DNA of 64,000 nt, taken from NCBI GenBank assembly GCA_963834255.1, contig CAWIBC010000009.1:12924-76923 (forward strand), read 5' to 3'. Source of the DNA: an uncultured Verrucomicrobiae bacterium (GTDB taxonomy: Bacteria; Verrucomicrobiota; Verrucomicrobiia; Chthoniobacterales; UBA10450). The notes beneath the pieces were generated by a model, which saw only the letters and a program-made list of their open reading frames with translations, ran no database searches and was not told where the DNA came from. The translations under genes were made by a program, and so were the position numbers. The number at the start of each line of letters is the position of its first letter. Positions within the stretch are counted from its first letter, which is position 1. Positions 45,132 through 55,848 of this stretch are shown here, piece by piece.

Positions 45132-45797
45132 ATGACCGCGCACCGCATTTTGATCGCTCCTTCCATCCTCGCGGCCGATTTCGGCCACCTCGCTGAGGAC
45201 GTGGAACGCGTCGTCGCGGCTGGCGCCGACTGGCTCCATCTCGACATCATGGATGGCCAGTTCGTTGACAACATTTCCTTTGGCCCGGCAATCGTGAAAC
45301 TGGTCCGCGGCCTAACGAGTCTGCCGCTGGACGTTCATCTCATGATCGAGCGGGCCGATCATTACGTCCCGCGTTTTCTCGAAGCGGGCGCCAACTCGAT
45401 CACGGTTCATGTCGAACCGGAGGCCAAACACGATGTCTCGGCCACGCTCCGTCTCATTCGCGAGCATGGCTGTCGCGCCGGGCTGACCTTGAATCCCGCC
45501 ATGCCCTTCGCCGCGGTTGAGCCGCACTTGCACCATATCGACCTGCTTCTCGTGATGACCGTCCATCCCGGGTTCGGCGGCCAGTCGTTCCAGGGCGAAA
45601 TGATGGGCAAAGTGCGGCGCGCGCGCGAACTGCGCGACTCGTTAGGCTTGAATTACGAGATCGAGGTCGACGGCGGGATCACGGCCGAGACCGCGCCCGT
45701 TTCGATCGAGGCCGGGGCCAACGTCCTTGTTGCCGGCACCGCCATTTTCAAGAGCGCCGATTACGCAGAAGCCATTCGCACTCTGCGCGGCGGCTAG
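45132..45797 (+). CDS. rpe: ribulose-phosphate 3-epimerase
   Basis: IAPSILAADF, LHLDIMDG.FV.N..FG, MTV.PGFGGQ.F and EVDGGI motifs. Confidence 0.9.
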   Translation: MTAHRILIAPSILAADFGHLAEDVERVVAAGADWLHLDIMDGQFVDNISFGPAIVKLVRGLTSLPLDVHLMIERADHYVPRFLEAGANSITVHVEPEAKHDVSATLRLIREHGCRAGLTLNPAMPFAAVEPHLHHIDLLLVMTVHPGFGGQSFQGEMMGKVRRARELRDSLGLNYEIEVDGGITAETAPVSIEAGANVLVAGTAIFKSADYAEAIRTLRGG

Positions 45798-45831
45798 CGG
45801 CCGTCCGGTCCGCGCGCTCCTCCTTACCTTT

Positions 45832-47562
45832 ATGCACGAACTCATTCGCGACATCACGTTTAGTATTGCCGCCGCCTGGCTTCTCGGGCTGGTCGCGCAG
45901 CAATTTCGGCAGCCGATCCTGCTCGCTTATCTCATCGCGGGCTTTTTCCTCGGGCCGGCCGGCTCGGGCCTGATCGCCTCCGCCGACAGCATTTCCGCCA
46001 TCGCCGAGCTCGGGCTCATTTTTCTCCTCTTCATGATCGGGCTTGAGATCGATCTGAAAAAAATCGTCAGCGCGGGCCGCTCCATCACCCTGACCGCGCT
46101 CGTCCAGATCAGCGCCGGGGCCATCATTGGCATTTTCTTTTTCCGGCTCTGCGGTTTTGGCCTCGGCGGCGGCGAATGGGACGCGCTTTATCTCGGCGCG
46201 GCGGGCGCGCTCAGCAGCACGGTCATCATCGTCAAGGTGCTCTACGAAAAGCAGGAGCTCGACACTTTAACCGGGCGCATCACGCTCGGCGTGCTCGTGC
46301 TGCAGGATTTGGCGGCGATTCTTTTCCTCGCCGTCCAGCCGAACCTCGAGAATCTCGCGCCCAGCATCCTGCTCCTCTCGCTTGTCCGCGTCGTCCTGCT
46401 CGTGGCCGCGGCCCTGGTCGTTAGTCGTTATGTTCTGCCGGCGATTTTCCGGCGCGTCTCGCGCTCGCCCGAACTGGTCCAGGTCGGCGCGCTGGCCTGG
46501 TGTTTCCTCGTCGGCGAACTCGGCGAACGGCTCCATCTCTCGCGCGAAATGGGCGCGCTCATCGCCGGCGTGGCGCTCTCCACCTTCCCCTACGCCCTCG
46601 ATGTGACGGCGAAAGTGACGAGCCTGCGCGATTTTTTCCTCACTCTTTTCTTCGTCGGCCTCGGCATGCAGATCCCCTTCCCCTCGCCGATGCTGGTCGG
46701 TTGGGCGCTCGTCTTCGCCGCCTTCGTCCTGATCAGCCGCTACGTCACGGTGTTCGCGCCGCTCTATCTCATGCGGCAGGGGCTGAGGACCAGCATCATC
46801 CCCGCGATCAACCTCGGGCAGGTGAGCGAATTCTCGCTCGTCATCCTCGCCCTCGGCGCGCAGAGCAAACACTTCGCCCACCCCGCCACCACCGGGATGG
46901 TCGCGCTCGCTTTTACCCTCCTTGCGGCTGTTTCCACTTTCGGAATGTCGAAATCCGACAGCCTCGCCCGCGGCCTCATCCCCTGGTTTAAAAAACGCGG
47001 GCTGCGCGATCTCGATCACGTCTCCGACGACGCCCACGCCGAAGGCGGCGCGAGTCAGAGCAAGGCGCGGATTGTCTTCCTCGGCTTCTTTCGCACCGCC
47101 AGTTCGCTCCTCGAGGAAATGCAGCGGCACGCGCCGGACCTGATCGGCGACACCGCGGTGGTCGATTTCAGTCCGGTGGCGCGGGAAGGCCTGCTCCAGC
47201 GCAAGGTGCGGGTGATCTACGGCGACATCAGCCAGCGCGACACCCTGCACCACGCCGAGATCGAGCACGCCGAGGTGCTCATCTGCACCATCCCGGATTC
47301 GATCCTGAAAGGCACGACGAACGAACGGCTCGTCAGAATGCTGCGCAGCCTGAATCCAACCGCGCAGATCATCGCCACCGCTGAAGTGCTTTCCCAGGCC
47401 GACCCACTCATCGCGGCGGGCGCGAACTATGTCTCCTTCGCCCGTCTGCACGAGGCGACCGATTTGCTGGAAGCGGTGCGGGCGGCGACCGAGGGATTGT
47501 TAGGCGAGAAACGGAGCGAGGCCGAACGTGCCCTGCGCGACCGGGCGGAAGTGCTGGCGTGA
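45832..47562 (+). CDS. cation:proton antiporter (Kef/CPA2-like) with C-terminal RCK/TrkA-N domain
   Basis: ATG 45832. 12-13 TM helices with LGPAGSGLI and IAELGLIFLLFMIGLE. C-terminal IVFLGFFRT...VIYGDIS Rossmann-like domain. Confidence 0.8.
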   Translation: MHELIRDITFSIAAAWLLGLVAQQFRQPILLAYLIAGFFLGPAGSGLIASADSISAIAELGLIFLLFMIGLEIDLKKIVSAGRSITLTALVQISAGAIIGIFFFRLCGFGLGGGEWDALYLGAAGALSSTVIIVKVLYEKQELDTLTGRITLGVLVLQDLAAILFLAVQPNLENLAPSILLLSLVRVVLLVAAALVVSRYVLPAIFRRVSRSPELVQVGALAWCFLVGELGERLHLSREMGALIAGVALSTFPYALDVTAKVTSLRDFFLTLFFVGLGMQIPFPSPMLVGWALVFAAFVLISRYVTVFAPLYLMRQGLRTSIIPAINLGQVSEFSLVILALGAQSKHFAHPATTGMVALAFTLLAAVSTFGMSKSDSLARGLIPWFKKRGLRDLDHVSDDAHAEGGASQSKARIVFLGFFRTASSLLEEMQRHAPDLIGDTAVVDFSPVAREGLLQRKVRVIYGDISQRDTLHHAEIEHAEVLICTIPDSILKGTTNERLVRMLRSLNPTAQIIATAEVLSQADPLIAAGANYVSFARLHEATDLLEAVRAATEGLLGEKRSEAERALRDRAEVLA

Positions 47563-48071: not shown

Positions 48072-49859
48072 TCACCGGCTCTTATTACCGGCGACCTCAA
48101 ATCCATGTAGGAATTCTTCGACGGTGCCGCGGTGTTCCTGCAAAAGAGATCGATAGGTCCAGGCCAAAAACTGAATCGAGCCGGAAGCGTCGCTATAGTA
48201 GTGAATATAGTAAGATAACGGGAGATCGTTCACGTTCGCTTCAACCTCACGGAAGAGCATGTTCACCCCGTTGATGTCGTGCGAACCCTCGCGGGTCACC
48301 TGCGCTCCCGGATCAAGTCTTCTTATATGGTCGAGGCCGAGCTGGGCCATTCGTGGCGGAGGCATTTGAATTCGTTCCGCGATGACTTTGCACCAGACCT
48401 CCCCGCTTTTGTGGACATATCCAAGTTCGCCCGGGCCGGTGGCGACACTCTTCTCCGCCTGCCATGTCGCGGGACTGTAGTGCAAGACCGCCGCCCCCTT
48501 GAGCAGTGGCGCTGAGGCCCGGCCGCTGGCGCCGGTCCCGGAAGAAAGTTCCGCAAACCCGTTGAGAAACTGTTCGATCGTGCTGCGATGTTCGCCCAAC
48601 AAGGACCGACCGGTCCAGCCGACAAACTGGATCGAGCCGGAGGGGCCGCTGTGGTAGTGAATGTAATAGATAAGAGGAACCCCGCTGGGAGTCGCTTCGA
48701 CCTCTCGGTAGGCCATTCCGCTTCCGTTGACCTCGCGATATCCTTCGCGCGTGACTTGCGCGTTCGGATCCAGTTGCCGGATTTGCGCGAGATTTAGTTC
48801 GACGAGGCGTTCGAGCGGAATTTCAATGCGTTCGGCGACCACTTTGAGCCAGACCTCGCCGCTTTTATGCTGGTATTGGAATTGACCGGACGGCGTGGTC
48901 ACGGTCGGGTCGACGTGCCAGAGCGCCGGGTCGTAGCGAATCACAGCCCGGCCATTGAGCAGCGGAACGGAAGTAAATTCAGGCACCTTGGTTAGGGCCG
49001 GGCTGGCGCTTGGACCAGGCACGGGTCTGGGCATATCCGGGTCCGGCGCGATCAGCCCGTCGAGCGCGGCGATAAATCCAATCAAGCCGAGAATCGCGAC
49101 ACTCGTCCCCAGGATCCATCCCCTTTTGGTCCGTTGAAATCTGCTCTCGCGCCAGGAGATGATGCCCATGACCAGCCCTATGACCGCAATAATGGCCAAC
49201 CCGACGCGACCGGATCGGTCAAGATCCTTTGCACTCAGCCCCATGGGCGCGATCACGACCAGGACGGCGCCGATGGTGCCTGTGACGACACCAAAGATGC
49301 CCTTCTTTGCCACCGGACGGGACGAATCGTGATCCTCCGAGAGCGACGGCTTGTGCGAAGCGATTGGCTGAAAGCCAGCTTTCTCCAGGGTCTTGCAAAT
49401 GCGGTCGAGATCATAGTGCCAGTCGCCGTCGCGAAGCTTGAGCGCATTGAGATCCGCCAGCGGGCGCAGCTCGGTCGGTAGTTCGTCCGCGCCCGGCATC
49501 TGCGCGTTCTCCAACAGCACTGGGAGAATGGTCGCTCCGTCCTTCAGGCCATCCGCGATTTCGAGCCGAAGGGGATCATCGTCATCCTCCAGGCGTCGTT
49601 GTCCACGGGCGTCCCGGGCATCGGCCCAATCTTTATCGATCAGCACGAGGAGAGCAGAGTCCTCGTCAATTTCCTCCAGCACGTGCTCTTTCCAGGAGAC
49701 GCCTCCCTCGATCGCTTCCTTGTCTCGGAAGATAAGTTCTTCGCCGAAATGACGGCGCAATTCACGGCTGAGTGCGCCCGCGGCATACTCCGCTTCCGTC
49801 CGACGGTAGCTGATGAAAATTCTTCGGATGGCCGAATCCTCCAGTAAAACCTATGGCAT
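48072..49859 (-). CDS. TIR domain - 3 TM helices - tandem duplicated extracytoplasmic domain protein; in-frame TAG at codon 3 (or non-canonical start)
   Basis: The track ORF starts at TTG 49760, but the frame stays open upstream and encodes the TIR start (RRIFISYRRTEAEYAAGALSRELRRHFG...). Upstream in frame is ATG(49859)-CCA-TAG(49853-49851). TM helices are GIFGVVTGTIGAVLVVIAPMG, VGLAIIAVIGLVMGIISW and ILGTSVAILGLIGFIAAL. The C-terminal ~125-aa module is repeated twice (HKSGEVW.KV.AERI..P..R......IR.LDP.AQVTREG....NG....REVEA......L.YYIHY.S..SGSIQF..WT.RSLL.EHR.T.E.FL.GF). Confidence 0.65.
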
Positions 49860-50444
49860 GGGAGTAAGCGGGGGGTTCCTGCCTAACGAATAAAAATTAC
49901 AGACCACTTTGGAAAGGTCAATCTGCAATGCGTCGCCAAAAGCTCACCGTAAAAAAGCTGTCAACCCGAGCCCGGTCTTCGAAATGGTAACTCCGGCCGC
50001 GCGGCCAGAGTCCCGTCATCGATAACCGCGTTCACTCGCGAGAAGTATCCCGGCTAAAGCCAACGTGGAGGGAAGCAACATCCGCAGCCCGGACTGAACT
50101 GAGGCCCGACAGGACAGTAGCTTTCGTTAGGCTAGCAATCTCAAGATACCGGGAAAAGAGACGAAGAGAAATTCCAGCCTTGCCAGAAGAACCCGGTCTG
50201 GGTCAAGCGAAGGTTTGTATGTTCCTCGGCGATGACAGCGGACAGGCCAATTGACCGTTCAGCCGTCAGCGGCGGCCTCGATTTTCCCAAGGTCCCCGCA
50301 ATCCGTCACTGCGCGGACTGATCGCCGCGTTTCCTGTGCATCCGAAAGACCTCGGTTGTCGGATATCGTCACAGCTTGGGGGTTAATTCCGTCCAAAATC
50401 GGAGCCACCAGGCCAAACCCGTAAAATTAGAAAGAAAATAAGTT

Positions 50445-51317
50445 ATGCTCAAAACAATCTTGATGATCGCGTCGTTAGCCGCGGTCCTTCCTGCCACTTC
50501 CCAGGCCCAGGTGAACAACACCAGCTCGAGCATTCGCGGCTCCGCTGTCGAATCAATCAGTCGCAACGTCAACCCGCGCGTAAAGGCCTTTGGCCTAACG
50601 ACCGATCAGCGGCTGATTGGGTTTAAATCAAGCGCGCCGCAACGGGCGCGAACGATCGGACCGATCCAGGGATTGATCGATGACACGGCGCTCGTCGGGA
50701 TGGATTTCCGCGTCCAGAACGGTCTCCTTTACGGTGTGGGAAACCAGGGCGGCATCTACACCATTGATACGACCAGCGGCGTCGCGACCTTCGTCAACCG
50801 GCTCAGCATTGCCCTGACCGGCACCTCCTTTGGGGTAGACTTCAACCCGGCCGCCGATCGCCTGCGCATCATTAGCAACGACGGACAAAACCTGCGTCAC
50901 GACGTCAACCCCGCCGGCGTCACGATCGCCGATGGCCGGCTTAATTACGTCGTCGGAACAGACGCACTCGGCATTGTCAGCGCGGCTTACACGAATAACG
51001 ACCTCGACACCAACACTGCGACCACGCTTTACGTGATCGACTCCATCCTCGACCAGGTCGTCCTGCAATCGCCTGCCAATGCCGGCACGCTCGCCGCCAC
51101 CGGTAAGTTGACCGTGGACACTGGCACAGATGTCGGCTTCGACATCTTCAGCACGCTCAGCGGCGGTGTGACGGTTGAAGTCCAGGGCTTCGCCTCGCTC
51201 GTTGATAGCGTCGGAATGGCGAGCTTCTACAGCATCAGCCTCCCGACCGGCAAAGCCGAGTTGCTTGGCGCCTTCCGCGCCGAGGACCAGGTGATCGACA
51301 TCGCCATCCCGCTCTAA
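50445..51317 (+). CDS. DUF4394 domain-containing secreted protein
   Basis: Signal peptide MLKTILMIASLAAVLPATSQA. Motifs ...LVGMDFRVQNGLLYGVG..GGIYTID...FGVDFNPAADRLRIIS..GQNLR...LYVID.... Confidence 0.7.
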   Translation: MLKTILMIASLAAVLPATSQAQVNNTSSSIRGSAVESISRNVNPRVKAFGLTTDQRLIGFKSSAPQRARTIGPIQGLIDDTALVGMDFRVQNGLLYGVGNQGGIYTIDTTSGVATFVNRLSIALTGTSFGVDFNPAADRLRIISNDGQNLRHDVNPAGVTIADGRLNYVVGTDALGIVSAAYTNNDLDTNTATTLYVIDSILDQVVLQSPANAGTLAATGKLTVDTGTDVGFDIFSTLSGGVTVEVQGFASLVDSVGMASFYSISLPTGKAELLGAFRAEDQVIDIAIPL

Positions 51318-51374: not shown

Positions 51375-53114
51375 CTACTCCGCGCCGGCCGGCTCGGCGA
51401 AGCCAGTCGTCTCCGCCATCACTTCGTCGGTCTGCGTCACCCGCACGACTTCTTCGATCGTCGTTTTGCCTTCCATCACGCGCCGCCAGCCGTCCTGGCG
51501 CAGGGTCAGCATCCCCTGGGCGATGGCGGTTTGCTTGAGCTCGCCACCGTCGCGCTTTTGCATGATGAGACGCTTCAGCGGCTCGGTCACGACACAGATT
51601 TCGTAGATCGCGAGGCGGCCCTGGTAGCCGGTCTGGCGACAATTTTCGCAGCCCGCGCCGCGCCGGAAAGTGAGTCCGTGGTCGAGCGGAAAGTTTATTT
51701 CTTCGAGATACTCTTTCGGATATTCGACCTTCTCCGCGCAATCGGGGCAGACCGTGCGGACGAGTCGTTGGGCCAGGAATGCTTTCACGACCGAGGCGAG
51801 GAGGAAGGGCTCGACGTCCATGTCGAGCAAACGGGTGATGCCGCCGACCGCGTCGTTCGTATGCAGGGTGCTGAAGACGAGGTGACCCGTCATGGCCGCG
51901 CGAATCGAGATGTCGGCCGTCTCGACGTCGCGGATTTCTCCGACCATCACGACGTTCGGGTCCTGCCGCAGAATGTGGCGCAGGCCCTTGGCAAAGGTGA
52001 GGTCGATCTCCGGTTTCACGTCGATCTGCGAGACGCCGGGCAGGCGATATTCGACCGGTTCCTCGATCGTGATGATGCGGCGCTGGACGGAGTTGATGCT
52101 GCTGAGGAAACAATAAAGCGAAGTCGATTTGCCCGAGCCGGTCGGGCCGGTGACGAGAACGATTCCGTTAGGCTGGGCAAGCAGCGCCTTCATGATCCGC
52201 GTCTGCTCCGGGCTCAGGTCGAGGCGTTCGAAACCGAACGCTTTTTGCTGGTCGCGCGCGAGCAGACGCAGGCTGATCGATTCACCGTTGACGGTTGGGA
52301 TGGTGGAAACGCGCACGTCGATGGTTTGCTCGGCCGATTGCAGGTTGATGCGGCCGTCCTGCGGCAAACGGCGCTCGGCGATGTCCATGTGCGCCATCAC
52401 TTTCAGGCGCGAGATGATGGCCGATTGCAGGAGGCGCAATTGCGGCGGAACCGCGACTTCGTGCAGGATGCCGTCGATGCGATAACGAATGCGCAGATCG
52501 TTCTCGAGCGGTTCGACGTGGATGTCGGTCGCGCGTTCGTGGATCGCTTCGCGGATGATCTGGTTGACGAACTTCACCACCGACGCTTCCGGGTCGTCGG
52601 CGTTCAGGTCGGTGCTCGTCTCGATGTCCTGGAGCGCTTCAAAGGAGCGATTCGTCTTGAGGATTTCGTCAAACGTTTCCGCCCCGACGCCGTAAAGCGT
52701 TTTCATCGCGCGCAGGATTTGCGCGCGCGGGACGAGGACCCACTCCGCCGGTTTATCCAGCAGCTGCGAGGCGAGCTGGCGCCCGGTCGAGTTAAACAAA
52801 TCGTAGGTCGCGAGGACGACGGCGTTGTCCTTGATCTCGATCGGCAGGATGTGGTGCTGGAAAACAAAACGGCTCGGCAGCACCAGCAAGGTCGCGCGCT
52901 CGATGCTCTTGGCGTCGATCGAGATGACCGGGACGCTGAAAAAATCGCCGATCGCTTTCAGGAAAAGCTGTTCGTCGACTTTGCCGGAATTGAGGACGTC
53001 GGCCGTCCAGGAGTTGCCGTTGAGATTGGCCGCGAGCGCGGTCGCTTCGTCCCGCGATGGGACGCCGCTGGCGAGAAGGATGTCGACGAGTGATTTACTC
53101 AGTGCCGGACTCAT
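51375..53114 (-). CDS. pilB: type IV pilus assembly (extension) ATPase PilB / GspE family
   Basis: N-terminal GSPII-type domain, Walker A GPTGSGKST, GEIRD, GHLVFSTLHTNDA, and the tetracysteine CPDC...CENC. Confidence 0.9.
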   Translation of the reverse strand: MSPALSKSLVDILLASGVPSRDEATALAANLNGNSWTADVLNSGKVDEQLFLKAIGDFFSVPVISIDAKSIERATLLVLPSRFVFQHHILPIEIKDNAVVLATYDLFNSTGRQLASQLLDKPAEWVLVPRAQILRAMKTLYGVGAETFDEILKTNRSFEALQDIETSTDLNADDPEASVVKFVNQIIREAIHERATDIHVEPLENDLRIRYRIDGILHEVAVPPQLRLLQSAIISRLKVMAHMDIAERRLPQDGRINLQSAEQTIDVRVSTIPTVNGESISLRLLARDQQKAFGFERLDLSPEQTRIMKALLAQPNGIVLVTGPTGSGKSTSLYCFLSSINSVQRRIITIEEPVEYRLPGVSQIDVKPEIDLTFAKGLRHILRQDPNVVMVGEIRDVETADISIRAAMTGHLVFSTLHTNDAVGGITRLLDMDVEPFLLASVVKAFLAQRLVRTVCPDCAEKVEYPKEYLEEINFPLDHGLTFRRGAGCENCRQTGYQGRLAIYEICVVTEPLKRLIMQKRDGGELKQTAIAQGMLTLRQDGWRRVMEGKTTIEEVVRVTQTDEVMAETTGFAEPAGAE

Positions 53115-53123
53115 GCTGCAAAT

Positions 53124-53519
53124 CTACGGCAAATGCAGCGCGCGGCGAACCCCGAGAGTCAGGGTTCCGGTGACGGTCTGCGAATAATTTTTCTGCATGC
53201 GCGCGATCGCGACACTGACCTCGGCAGAGAAGATGCCGTCGATCGGGCCGCAATAATAACCATTGCGGTACAAAGCGGTCTGGAGCGCGCCGACGTAAGC
53301 GACATCGCCGGCCAGCGTTTGGCTCGGGATTAAGTAATAGGCCCAACGCGACGGATAGCGCGGCGCGAAGTCGGTGCGATTCACGTGCGGGCTTTGATGC
53401 AAACGCCCGAACTCATCGGTCTGGGCCAGGGGGTCGGTGTAGAACGAAAATCGATCCGCCTGCGCGCAGATCGGCAGGAGGCAGGATGAAACCAGGAGCA
53501 GGATCAAAAAGCGGCGCAT
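53124..53519 (-). CDS. secreted/lipoprotein with peptidoglycan-binding (PG_binding_1) domain
   Basis: Signal peptide MRRFLILLLVSSCLLPICA. VGALQTALYRNGYYCGPIDGIFSAEVSVAIARMQKNY..TVTGTL. Confidence 0.6.
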   Translation of the reverse strand: MRRFLILLLVSSCLLPICAQADRFSFYTDPLAQTDEFGRLHQSPHVNRTDFAPRYPSRWAYYLIPSQTLAGDVAYVGALQTALYRNGYYCGPIDGIFSAEVSVAIARMQKNYSQTVTGTLTLGVRRALHLP

Positions 53520-53532
53520 AACGACAAGCAGT

Positions 53533-55848
53533 TTATTTTACCATCGGCAGGTCCGGCGGTGGCAAAGCCTTGCCATCGAGCACCGGCGGGCAATCGGGAC
53601 AATCGTCTTCTTCCAACTCGGGACCGAAATGCGTCTTGCTCTCCTGCTTCTCACGCAGGCGATACATGTCGAGCTTCGTCAGCGTCACTTCCGGCCGCAT
53701 GAGAACGATGAGCTCGTTGCGTTCCTTGGTTTTGTTCGTGGTGCTGAAGAGCGCCCCGACGACCGGGAGGCGACTCAGAATCGGGAAGCCGCTGCGGGCG
53801 CGGTCGTTGCGATCCATGATCAGGCCGCCGAGGACGACAGTCGATCGGTTAGGCGCGGCGACGGTGGTCTTGATGTAGCGAGTCGAGATATTGGGAATGT
53901 CGTTGTTATCGATCCGGGTGGTGCCGGCGACGCTGTCGACCTTTTGCAGGATATCGAGCGAGACTTCATTCTCGGAGTTGATCAGCGGCACGACCTCAAG
54001 CTGGAGCGCGACCTTCTTGAACTCGATGTTCGACTGCTGCGAGAGCCCGGTGCTGATCAGGCTGGTGCCGGTCGAGGCGCTCAGGGTGCTGACCGGGACG
54101 GGAATTTCGGTGCCGGAAGCGATGATCGCCTTCTTGTTGTTGCTCGTGAAAACGGTTGGCCGCGAGATGGTGCGGAAACGCCCGGACGATTCCAGCGCGC
54201 GAACGATCGCGGCCAGGGTGTTGCCGGCCGCGACATAGGCCGTCGCCCCACTGGTATTACCGAGGGCGCTGCTAAAGGCGGGGAAAGTGATCAGGCTGGC
54301 CGGGTCAATAATCGACGCGCCGGTATTCCTGAGGCCGCCACCGACCCCGACATCGGGGCTTTGCGCGATGTTGTTTTTCTTGAACTGGAGCAGGTAATCA
54401 ATCCCGAACTCTTCTTCATTATTCAGGCGCAGTTCGCCGATGACCGTGCTGAGGGCGACCTGCGGCGCTTTCACGTCCATCTCGTCGAGGATCGCCGTCA
54501 CCTTGCTCACCACTTCGCGGGTACCGAGGACGATGATGGTGTTGGCGCGGGCGTCGGCGATCAGCTTGGTGTTGCCGACCGTGACCGATTGCGGGGTGGT
54601 GTCGGTCGGTTCGGTCGAAAGCTGCTCACTGACCTGGAGCGTGCTCTCACCGCCGGTGCCGGTGTTGTCGGTCAATGGTTGATTGTTAGGCAGATTCTGG
54701 TTCCGCTGCTGGTTGCGCTGATTGGGATTGAGCCCCTGCTGGCCTTGTTGTCCCTGGTCGCCGGGCTCGGTCAGGGCGTTCACCAAAACCTGCAGCACAT
54801 CGGCCGCCGCGATGTATTTCAAGGGCCGCACGACGGGCTCGCCAAACTCCACGTTGGCGTCAAACTCGGCGATGAGCTTTTCGATAAACGGGAGGTTCAC
54901 CGGCCGGGTGATGACGTGGATGCGGTTGGTCCGGACATCGGCTTCGAGCTTGATTTTGCCGACGATGAGCGAGTCCTCCGACAGAACCGCTCCGCTGTCA
55001 TCCTCGGCGATCTGCTGCTGCGGATTACCGGGCGGAACCACTCCGCGCACCCGCCGCGCGACCGGTTGGCCGGCCTGGTCGCCCTTGTCGAAAATCTCCT
55101 TCAACATGTCGACCACCTTTTGCGCATCGGCCCGCTCGAGTTTGATGAAGAGGCTCGTCACTTCGGCCGGAGCGACGTCGATCTGCTCGACCATCGCCAC
55201 CAGCTTGCGCAGCACGTCCGCGCTCTGGGTGATGAGGAGGCTGGAAGATTTCGGAAGAGCGAGAATCGGCGCCTGGCCGCCAATGCCGGCGAGGTACTGG
55301 GAGAGGACCTGCTGCAATTCCTGGGTATCGGCGTAGTTCAGCCGGAAAAGATAACTCACCACCATCGCGCCCGTCGGGAGGTCGGCCGGGTCGGAGATGA
55401 TCGGGACGGCGGCGGCGCGCGGATTCTTGTTCACCCCAATGACCTCGACGATGTCACCTGTGGCCGGGACGAGGGAAAAGCCGTTCAAGGCCAGGTTCAT
55501 CTCGATGATGGTGATGGCTTCTTCGCGCGGGATCGGCTTGGCGAGGAAGATGTTCACTTTGCCCTGGACGTTGTTGTCCATGACGAGCTTTTTGCCGGTC
55601 AGGTTTTCGTAGAGGCGCAGGACGTCGAGCACGTCGCTGTTGGGGTATTGCATCGTCACCATGTCGGCCGTGCGCGTGGCGGTGCCGGGCCGGGCCGGTT
55701 GCACGCCGGGTCGAGGCGGAACGAACGGGGTTGCGGCGGGCACCTGGCCGGGCAACGCCTCGGTGAAAAGAAGGAACGGAACGAGGCAGCAAAGGAAGCG
55801 GCGAAGCACGGGCTGTATGTAATTGTTTGGCAAGCGGAGGTCAACCAT
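53533..55848 (-). CDS. pilQ: type IV pilus / type II secretion family secretin (PilQ/GspD)
   Basis: 771 aa. N0/N1-type repeats (VLRLYENLTGKKLV..., ...IIVLGT). C-terminal secretin core TVVLGGLI......SGFPILSRLPVVGALF......R.ELIVLMRP. Confidence 0.85.
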   Translation of the reverse strand: MVDLRLPNNYIQPVLRRFLCCLVPFLLFTEALPGQVPAATPFVPPRPGVQPARPGTATRTADMVTMQYPNSDVLDVLRLYENLTGKKLVMDNNVQGKVNIFLAKPIPREEAITIIEMNLALNGFSLVPATGDIVEVIGVNKNPRAAAVPIISDPADLPTGAMVVSYLFRLNYADTQELQQVLSQYLAGIGGQAPILALPKSSSLLITQSADVLRKLVAMVEQIDVAPAEVTSLFIKLERADAQKVVDMLKEIFDKGDQAGQPVARRVRGVVPPGNPQQQIAEDDSGAVLSEDSLIVGKIKLEADVRTNRIHVITRPVNLPFIEKLIAEFDANVEFGEPVVRPLKYIAAADVLQVLVNALTEPGDQGQQGQQGLNPNQRNQQRNQNLPNNQPLTDNTGTGGESTLQVSEQLSTEPTDTTPQSVTVGNTKLIADARANTIIVLGTREVVSKVTAILDEMDVKAPQVALSTVIGELRLNNEEEFGIDYLLQFKKNNIAQSPDVGVGGGLRNTGASIIDPASLITFPAFSSALGNTSGATAYVAAGNTLAAIVRALESSGRFRTISRPTVFTSNNKKAIIASGTEIPVPVSTLSASTGTSLISTGLSQQSNIEFKKVALQLEVVPLINSENEVSLDILQKVDSVAGTTRIDNNDIPNISTRYIKTTVAAPNRSTVVLGGLIMDRNDRARSGFPILSRLPVVGALFSTTNKTKERNELIVLMRPEVTLTKLDMYRLREKQESKTHFGPELEEDDCPDCPPVLDGKALPPPDLPMVK

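Follow-up and report, generated by a model that had tools for sequence, protein, structure and literature searches.

Is a bacterial reading frame that carries a TIR domain, membrane helices and a duplicated outer domain, but no orthodox start codon, a working gene, and if so, what kind of protein does it encode? This question was raised by a gene on the minus strand of a 64,000-nucleotide (nt) stretch of contig CAWIBC010000009.1, assembled from an uncultured Verrucomicrobiae bacterium; the whole of this stretch is referred to below as the window. A first-pass annotation had described a membrane-spanning TIR protein and had considered, among other options, that the gene was switched off by a TAG at codon 3. 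Our analysis indicated that the gene for this membrane TIR protein is real and that its product is a bacterial TIR protein joined to a new sequence family of a known fold. We read this product as a single-chain, receptor-type protein, in which a cytoplasmic SARM1-like TIR domain is connected through three transmembrane (TM) helices to two periplasmic domains of the PsbP/DcrB fold; the mechanism that this implies is one that we infer, and we regard the reading as an even call.

The minus-strand frame is open from the TAG at 49851-49853 down to the TGA at 48072-48074, and homologs of the 585-amino-acid (aa) protein specified from an ATC codon near the upstream end of this frame (Table 1) were aligned from residue 1 with E values of 1e-146 to 1e-101. 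Open reading frame (ORF) calling had started the frame at TTG 49760, resulting in a 562-aa product, and the translation upstream of this TTG runs on with 'IRRIFISYRRTEAEYAAGALSRE'. From the N terminus, the protein consists of the TIR domain, the three TM helices and the two tandem PsbP/DcrB-fold domains. This order, as given in the first-pass annotation, was found to be correct by Pfam searches, hydropathy and an AlphaFold2 model of the full-length protein, which had a mean predicted local distance difference test (pLDDT) score of 85.6, with most of the TIR region above 90, and a predicted template modelling (pTM) score of 0.39. Overall, the architecture and topology of the protein are well supported.

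The TIR assignment was examined by profile and structure searches. With the 585-aa version from ATC 49829, Pfam TIR_2 (PF13676) matched aa 4 to 143 at 33.4 bits, against a threshold of 28, and was covered from position 1 to position 120 of its 122 positions. The AlphaFold2 model of this region exhibited a flavodoxin-like alternation, with strands at residues 3-7, 33-35, 58-64 and 100-105 between helices and pLDDT values mostly above 90. SARM1 TIR domains were the sole solved structures matched by sequence in a phmmer search of the PDB (E = 0.011), and Foldseek comparisons detected human SARM1 (7anw_A; E = 5e-6, root mean square deviation [rmsd] of 2.9 Å over 147 columns), the SARM1 TIR domain 6o0v (template modelling score [TM-score] of 0.76 on the target) and Caenorhabditis elegans TIR-1 (rmsd of 2.4 Å over 153 columns). 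Profile search and structure prediction were hence in agreement on a TIR fold. In the phmmer alignment, Glu90 of the window protein (within 'RLEI') was placed on SARM1 Glu642 (within 'HKEI'), and the 'EGG' loop containing G42 and G43 was placed on the BB-loop Gly601; the SARM1 numbering was checked by counting from the known positions of G601 and W638. Glu90, F5, Y8, R9, R10, G43, W46 and E107 were invariant in a 16-member family alignment, and the candidate catalytic Glu proposed at the outset was thereby upheld. These results suggested, from sequence and model, that the TIR domain looks enzymatically competent and of the SARM1 type, with a predicted activity.

The three proposed TM helices were recovered as hydropathy segments and were modelled as helices (Table 1). 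Four K/R residues precede TM1 and five lie in the TM2-TM3 loop. The family consensus of the TM1-TM2 loop ('SDDLDRDGH') is acidic, and the tail that follows TM3 carries a net negative charge. The TIR protein has no N-terminal signal peptide, which should place its TIR domain in the cytoplasm and its C-terminal domains outside. This placement of the TIR domain inside the cell and of the repeats outside, which had been anticipated in the first-pass annotation, is supported by the charge distribution and by secreted relatives of the outer domain, as a signal-like hydrophobic N terminus was present in 99 of the 124 family proteins with more than 35 aa ahead of the first domain. In one relative (P0012), a single TM helix is present and the helix count is still odd. 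A GspD secretin is encoded in the window; the host is therefore diderm, and 'outside' corresponds to the periplasm. The membrane module may be a divergent member of DUF4190 (PF13828), a family that gave no match on the window protein and scores of 16 to 28 bits, against a cut-off of 35, on several relatives sharing the TIR domain and three helices (TIR-3TM relatives). Sub-threshold DUF4190 matches were seen on the TM1-TM2 hairpin (aa ∼172-248) of P0016, P0020, P0032, P0037 and P0039.

The outer part of the protein contains two tandem copies of a domain, as the first-pass annotation had reported, although each copy is ∼142 aa long and not the ∼125 aa given there; Pfam does not name this domain. 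Self-comparison of the copies produced a local BLOSUM62 score of 437 and identities of 56% at the amino acid level and 64% at the nucleotide level. In a neighbour-joining tree, the copies were each other's nearest relatives and were positioned beside P0002 and P0003. These values and this mutual closeness indicated an old, lineage-specific duplication; a single outer-domain copy was present in all close relatives. Both copies have kept all of the invariant and near-invariant positions of the family, including W21, E50, N85, G86, G115, Q118 and T123.

A model of copy 2, built from a 62-sequence alignment, had a pLDDT of 96.2 and a pTM of 0.89 and consisted of five strands followed by a helix, then four strands, a second helix and one last strand. 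This structure prediction identified the PsbP/DcrB/Mog1 fold. A Foldseek search of the PDB yielded 35 matches at E ≤ 1e-3, nearly all of them in this fold group, with a probability of 1.00, TM-scores of 0.55 to 0.71 and identities of 8 to 16%. CyanoP, PsbP and DcrB were detected at E values of ∼2e-6 with TM-scores of 0.6 to 0.7, and Mog1p, the Eag/SciW chaperones (EagT6), MTC28, Apa, LpqN and Tsi3 were also matched. Known proteins of this fold bind proteins or lipids, and many are extracytoplasmic. Searches of Pfam with 15 aligned domain sequences at E ≤ 10 detected no credible match (the best, at E = 0.06, was to unrelated families) and none to PsbP or DUF1795; Pfam searches of 148 full-length relatives at E ≤ 0.001 placed no domain over the outer-domain region, and a profile search of PDB sequences with the outer domain found nothing significant. 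As judged from these searches and from the predicted structure, the outer domain forms a sequence family that is new within the PsbP/Mog1/DcrB fold.

The extent of this family was assessed by a profile search over 1.84 billion cluster representatives (50% identity), which detected 1,390 representatives at E ≤ 1e-3 and 766 at E ≤ 1e-10. The source names inspected were 'hypothetical protein', apart from one transthyretin-like and one 'TonB family' label. Among the best 148 of the 1,390 representatives, the domain array reached the C terminus in 140. Partner domains in the family were YbjN (n = 20), trypsin-like peptidases (n = 12), caspase C14 (n = 3), TPR and TonB_C; GYF_2, zinc ribbon and TIR domains were found on the cytoplasmic side of the TM helices. 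Two domain copies were present in 54 and three in 4 of 162 domain-bearing proteins, a set that included the TIR relatives collected earlier, indicating that tandem duplication is common in the family. One relative of 644 aa (P0088) combined a TIR_2 domain (77.7 bits), TM helices and two outer-domain copies. The TIR domain of P0088 had no significant BLAST similarity to that of the window protein; being unrelated, it indicates that the combination of a TIR domain with a tandem outer domain arose at least twice. The two copies in P0088 are nearly identical, indicating a recent duplication. The commonest form of the family (for example, P0140, P0141, P0167 and P0227) is a secreted protein of ∼208 aa in which the motif 'ATTEDGKxVxLxxDGTWxY' is conserved N-terminal to the domain, and a few relatives of the outer domain match Pfam MORN (PF02493). 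This large, uncharacterised family of secreted proteins merits a family definition.

A different pattern emerged from relatives of the inner part of the protein. Database searches detected about a dozen relatives with the full architecture at 45 to 55% identity and roughly 30 more that matched the TIR and membrane parts only; these came from metagenome-assembled genomes (MAGs) of Acidobacteriota (Vicinamibacterales), Burkholderiales, Gammaproteobacteria and Myxococcota. Of the full-length genomic relatives, the nearest was in a Vicinamibacterales MAG (48% identity). When 29 TIR-3TM proteins were aligned through TM3, their C-terminal tails fell into at least seven unrelated groups: PsbP-like tails (n = 11), tails of ∼140 aa (n = 10), ∼260 aa (n = 3) and ∼240 aa (n = 2) and three singletons, one of which has a CarboxypepD_reg-like domain. 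A constant inner part with interchangeable outer modules is the pattern of sensor kinases, chemoreceptors and anti-sigma factors. It is mainly because one TIR-3TM core carries interchangeable tails that we read the outer domains as sensors, and by this analogy the TIR-3TM family points to a receptor with swappable sensors.

In such a receptor, the outer domains would bind an envelope or extracellular ligand, probably a protein, a peptide or a lipid-linked molecule, and binding would alter the packing or clustering of the three-helix membrane module. A change in self-association would then bring the TIR domains together, and the associated domains would cleave nicotinamide adenine dinucleotide (NAD+) or make an ADP-ribose-derived signal, with growth arrest or signalling as the outcome. 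A requirement of TIR self-association for NADase activity is established for SARM1 and for bacterial TIR NADases. For the window protein, we infer ligand binding, clustering, NADase activity and the physiological outcome alike. A receptor role is favoured by P0088, which independently joins an unrelated TIR domain, TM helices and two outer-domain copies, and by the attachment of the outer domain in other proteins to secreted trypsin-like and caspase peptidases.

Several points weigh against a receptor. The relative placement of the domains in the full-length model is unreliable, as indicated by its low pTM, and to our knowledge no activity, ligand or phenotype is on record for either family. 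An all-against-all comparison of 18 loci detected no conserved neighbour family besides the gene itself, 81 neighbour ORFs from 11 loci produced no defence-island signal and weak generic PADLOC matches only, and free secreted relatives of the outer domain at three loci had no common neighbourhood that could provide a functional hint. The ATC start may leave the gene non-functional in this organism. Finally, anchoring or assembly, and not sensing, could be the role of the outer domain.

This last point leads to an alternative in which the TIR domain is a non-enzymatic scaffold and the outer PsbP-like domains anchor or assemble an envelope complex, with no outside-in signalling. PsbP, DcrB, LpqN and the Eag proteins are assembly, chaperone or binding factors, most members of the outer-domain family are plain secreted proteins that lack an output domain, and a type II secretion cluster is located nearby in the window, all of which are consistent with a structural role. 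The catalytic Glu and the BB-loop Gly are, however, invariant, the fold is nearest to that of the enzyme SARM1, the interchangeable tails on one TIR-3TM core fit a sensor better than a fixed structural role, and the neighbours are not conserved. We therefore consider a scaffold to be improbable and retain the receptor as the preferred interpretation.

The other part of the question, whether the gene works in this organism, depends on its start. At the position of ATC 49829-49827, a comparison of the DNA of 16 homologous loci detected ATG in 14 and GTG in 2. Every complete relative begins with M/V-R/K-K-I-F-I-S-Y-R-R, which corresponds residue for residue to I-R-R-I-F-I-S-Y-R-R in the window, and the start context 'GCC ATG CG' is common to the window gene and to two of the loci (L002 and L004) except for the third base of the start codon. 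The ATC is preceded by a Shine-Dalgarno (SD)-like motif (Table 1), and reading of the sequence ahead of TTG 49760 revealed no comparable motif. In the AlphaFold2 model, a product started from the TTG would have lost strand beta-A, at aa 3-7, and the greater part of helix alpha-A, at aa 10-28, in confirmation of the earlier observation that beta-A is encoded upstream of the first canonical start. From this sequence comparison, the anomaly of the gene is a third-base change of the start codon, ATG to ATC. The suspected nonsense codon was rejected, since the TAG is located upstream of the start common to the homologs; the ATG 49859-CCA-TAG string does exist but does not constitute codons 1 to 3 of this gene, as the 16 homologous loci start at the ATC position. 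CTG 49844 and ATT 49820, the non-canonical starts suggested previously, were likewise discarded in favour of ATC 49829, which was not among the codons proposed, matches the start of the homologs and has the SD motif at 7 nt. A 5-bp hairpin (TTCGG-CCAT-CCGAA, window positions 49823-49836, minus strand) spans the ATC, and its C adds one stem pair relative to ATG. This hairpin was uninformative, with similar predicted fold energies of -11.8 kcal/mol for ATG and -11.5 kcal/mol for ATC.

In Escherichia coli, AUC initiates with Met at about 1 to 2% of the AUG level, with a range of 0.02 to 3% (bioRxiv 10.1101/063800). The presence of ATC in place of ATG or GTG therefore implies very little synthesis of the protein, or none, and three explanations were weighed. 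We lean slightly towards a real ATC that still permits some translation. The gene could instead be a recent pseudogene in this organism, in which the change from ATG to ATC ended useful translation and the remaining frame has so far escaped decay. The use of ATG or GTG by all 16 homologs, the very poor performance of AUC as an initiator and the position of the next canonical start, TTG 49760, which lacks an SD motif and would cut into the TIR core, are in keeping with such a loss. In opposition to it, the frame is unbroken over its 585 codons, the two outer-domain copies have lost none of the invariant or near-invariant residues of the family, a strong SD motif is retained at ideal spacing, and weak expression might be acceptable or even advantageous in the case of a potentially toxic NADase. 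Recent loss of the gene is, on this evidence, possible but rather doubtful.

The third explanation is that the ATC is a base-calling or assembly error and that the real gene has a normal ATG start. A difference of one third-position base within an otherwise conserved start context and an origin in what is apparently an environmental metagenome assembly could both be accounted for in this way. However, the same 562-aa product, called from the TTG, was present on a separate contig of 2,161 nt from run ERR12037361, and an ATG on this contig should have led a gene caller to lengthen the frame up to it. The two contigs are possibly from the same sample and so are not fully independent, making this a mild argument against a one-off assembly error. 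A single-protein scan of genome contigs for closer relatives or other strains in which the start could be compared found none, and neither did an exact-pattern scan of metagenome contigs. An error appears quite unlikely to us, and a weakly translated ATC is slightly preferred. One practical lesson is that ORF calling gave a truncated 562-aa product in which the first TIR strand was missing.

Table 1. Positions in the window of the membrane TIR gene, its parts and its upstream region
Feature	Coordinates	Strand	Basis
Full coding sequence, 585 codons, ATC to last sense codon (TIR, three TM helices, two PsbP-like domains)	48075..49829	-	Open frame; homologs align from residue 1
TGA stop codon	48072..48074	-	Frame read
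ATC, most likely translation start	49827..49829	-	16/16 homologous loci have ATG or GTG there
GGAGGA, SD-like motif, 7 nt before ATC	49837..49842	-	Sequence read
ATG-CCA-TAG, upstream in-frame three-codon element outside the gene	49851..49859	-	Start-site comparison
TTG, codon 24, start picked by ORF calling	49758..49760	-	ORF list
TIR domain, SARM1-like, aa 1-155	49365..49829	-	Pfam TIR_2; phmmer vs PDB; Foldseek
Glu90 codon GAA, candidate catalytic residue	49560..49562	-	Aligns with SARM1 E642; invariant in 16 members
TM helix 1, aa 178-198	49236..49298	-	Hydropathy; AlphaFold2
TM helix 2, aa 205-232	49134..49217	-	Hydropathy; AlphaFold2
TM helix 3, aa 235-260	49050..49127	-	Hydropathy; AlphaFold2
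PsbP/DcrB-fold domain copy 1, aa 286-427	48549..48974	-	Self-comparison; model
PsbP/DcrB-fold domain copy 2, aa 438-579	48093..48518	-	AlphaFold2 pLDDT 96.2; Foldseek
Divergent intergenic region, 615 bp, TIR gene to DUF4394 gene	49830..50444	.	GC profile

The genomic context was examined for links to defence. On one side, the window neighbours of the TIR gene encode MreC, MreB, ribulose-phosphate epimerase (Rpe), a Kef-type antiporter and a cupin, and on the other, a divergent DUF4394 secreted protein, GspE, a peptidoglycan-binding protein, the GspD secretin and a Mur ligase (MurC). The DUF4394 gene is located at 50445-51317 on the plus strand and the type II secretion-like cluster, comprising the GspE ATPase, a small PG_binding_1 protein and the GspD secretin, at 51375-55848 on the minus strand. 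The Kef-type antiporter, a Na+/H+ exchanger with a TrkA_N domain (45727-47562, plus strand), adjoins the TIR gene, and in two related Gammaproteobacteria MAG loci a Kef-type exchanger is likewise no more than about 5 kb away from the TIR-3TM gene (L011, 9821-11269; L012, 13157-14941); this recurrence, with two independent cases among 18 loci, is probably due to chance. No clear compositional island was detected, the GC content being 0.59 to 0.62 in the gene and 0.61 to 0.65 in the flanks. The spacer at 49830-50444 has a GC content of 0.53 to 0.57 as against 0.61 to 0.65 nearby. The first-pass annotation had correctly noted a non-coding region of lower GC, given there as 585 bp, but had placed it after the gene, whereas it is the 5' divergent region shared with the DUF4394 gene. 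A search of this spacer against Rfam at E ≤ 1 gave no match, its ORFs were short and unsupported, and promoter and terminator scans of it were at background level; a regulatory RNA was rejected in view of the Rfam result and the scans.

The called genes at three relatives were metabolic or housekeeping genes, except in the case of the one-TM variant P0012. At this locus (L003, 1-2181 and 16285-17094), the gene lies beside TerL/DnaB prophage-like genes and a TIR gene of the CAP12-PCTIR type, and no other locus examined had a mobile-element or defence character. At L004, what seemed to be a second paralog proved to be a membrane Ser/Thr kinase. The weak PADLOC matches among the 81 neighbour ORFs were to MotB/OmpA-like and TPR proteins, one caspase and one SAVED-TIR protein, and the Pfam content of these ORFs was one of transport, metabolism and PAS/GGDEF signalling. 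With the protein itself, PADLOC and NCBIfam models gave weak partial TIR matches only (ThsB1, E = 2.9e-4; ThcB4, 30.9 bits against a cut-off of 220), and nothing coherent was found on the neighbours, so that a known defence system was rejected.

These data bear on a further alternative, in which the gene is a single-gene antiphage (abortive-infection) system whose outer domains sense a phage component or injection-linked envelope damage and whose TIR domain depletes NAD+. A screen of TIR systems in E. coli described single-gene defence systems, and some of the new systems, active in this host, pair a TM domain with a TIR domain (PMC11350192). The conserved catalytic Glu of the TIR domain, contexts that vary between genomes as for an accessory gene, the position of the one-TM variant beside prophage-like genes and another TIR gene, and the partial matches to ThsB-type models, weak as they are, would all fit such a system. 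The window neighbours are nevertheless housekeeping genes, the 81 ORFs at 11 loci contain no recognisable PADLOC system, and the ThsB/ThcB4 matches are far below their cut-offs. Antiphage function, which the first-pass annotation had brought up, received no support from the housekeeping neighbours, from the 18 loci without a shared neighbour or from the weak PADLOC matches; the survey of homologs largely found housekeeping contexts lacking a defence association, which weakens the defence claim. We judge phage defence to be unlikely and continue to prefer a receptor for an envelope or extracellular ligand.

In bacteria, TIR proteins have chiefly been described as effectors or sensors that act in the cytoplasm in phage defence. 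A broader proposal, which we advance tentatively and hold to be more doubtful than the receptor reading of this one protein, is that the TIR-3TM core with its interchangeable outer domains may represent a previously unrecognised class of bacterial receptor-type TIR proteins with outside-in signalling, which would correspond in function to the Toll-like receptors and have an enzymatic output of the SARM1 type, and that the duplicated domain may be the first example of a large, undescribed family of envelope modules that have the PsbP fold and serve in sensing or binding. If this is correct, bacteria also use TIR domains in the manner of receptors, with an exchangeable outer domain coupled across the membrane to a TIR enzyme, and the window protein would offer a tractable model for a SARM1-like NADase switched on by clustering across a membrane. 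Interest in these proteins would rise with a demonstration of outside-in TIR signalling.

The protein was also compared with known systems. The beta-A motif 'FISYRR', the BB-loop Gly, the catalytic Glu (E90 corresponding to E642) and a loop inserted at the same place ahead of helix alpha-C are features that the window TIR domain shares with SARM1 and TIR-1. SARM1 has an ARM-SAM-SAM-TIR arrangement, whereas the window protein has neither ARM nor SAM domains; its TIR domain is bacterial, N-terminal and tethered by three helices, is ∼19 to 20% identical to that of SARM1 and has a predicted activity. The Thoeris protein ThsB also has a TIR_2-type domain, and the weak partial ThsB1 and ThcB4 matches extend over aa 2 to 65; in contrast to Thoeris, no ThsA-like partner adjoins the window gene, its neighbours being the cupin, Kef antiporter, DUF4394 and GspE genes, and the membrane and outer parts of the window protein are absent from Thoeris and from other bacterial TIR defence systems. 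The outer domain has the beta-sheet-plus-two-helices fold of PsbP/CyanoP, DcrB, Mog1p, Eag (DUF1795), MTC28, Apa, LpqN and Tsi3, most of which are extracytoplasmic binding or assembly modules, but it differs from them in its low identity (8 to 16%), in belonging to a separate sequence family and in being fused to a TM-TIR module. The type VI immunity proteins Tli4 and TplEi likewise have two PsbP-like periplasmic domains, which align with the window tandem over about 340 columns; the rmsd of ∼18 Å reflects a different inter-domain arrangement, and these proteins have no TM or TIR part and no sequence relationship to the window protein. The Toll-like and interleukin-1 (IL-1) receptors follow the same logic, in that a binding domain outside the cell is linked by a membrane span to a TIR domain in the cytoplasm. 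Those receptors have a single span, a leucine-rich-repeat or immunoglobulin outer domain and a C-terminal TIR domain, while in the window protein the TIR domain comes first, followed by three spans and a PsbP-like outer domain, and this TIR domain is more like the enzymatic type of SARM1 than the scaffold type of the Toll-like receptors.

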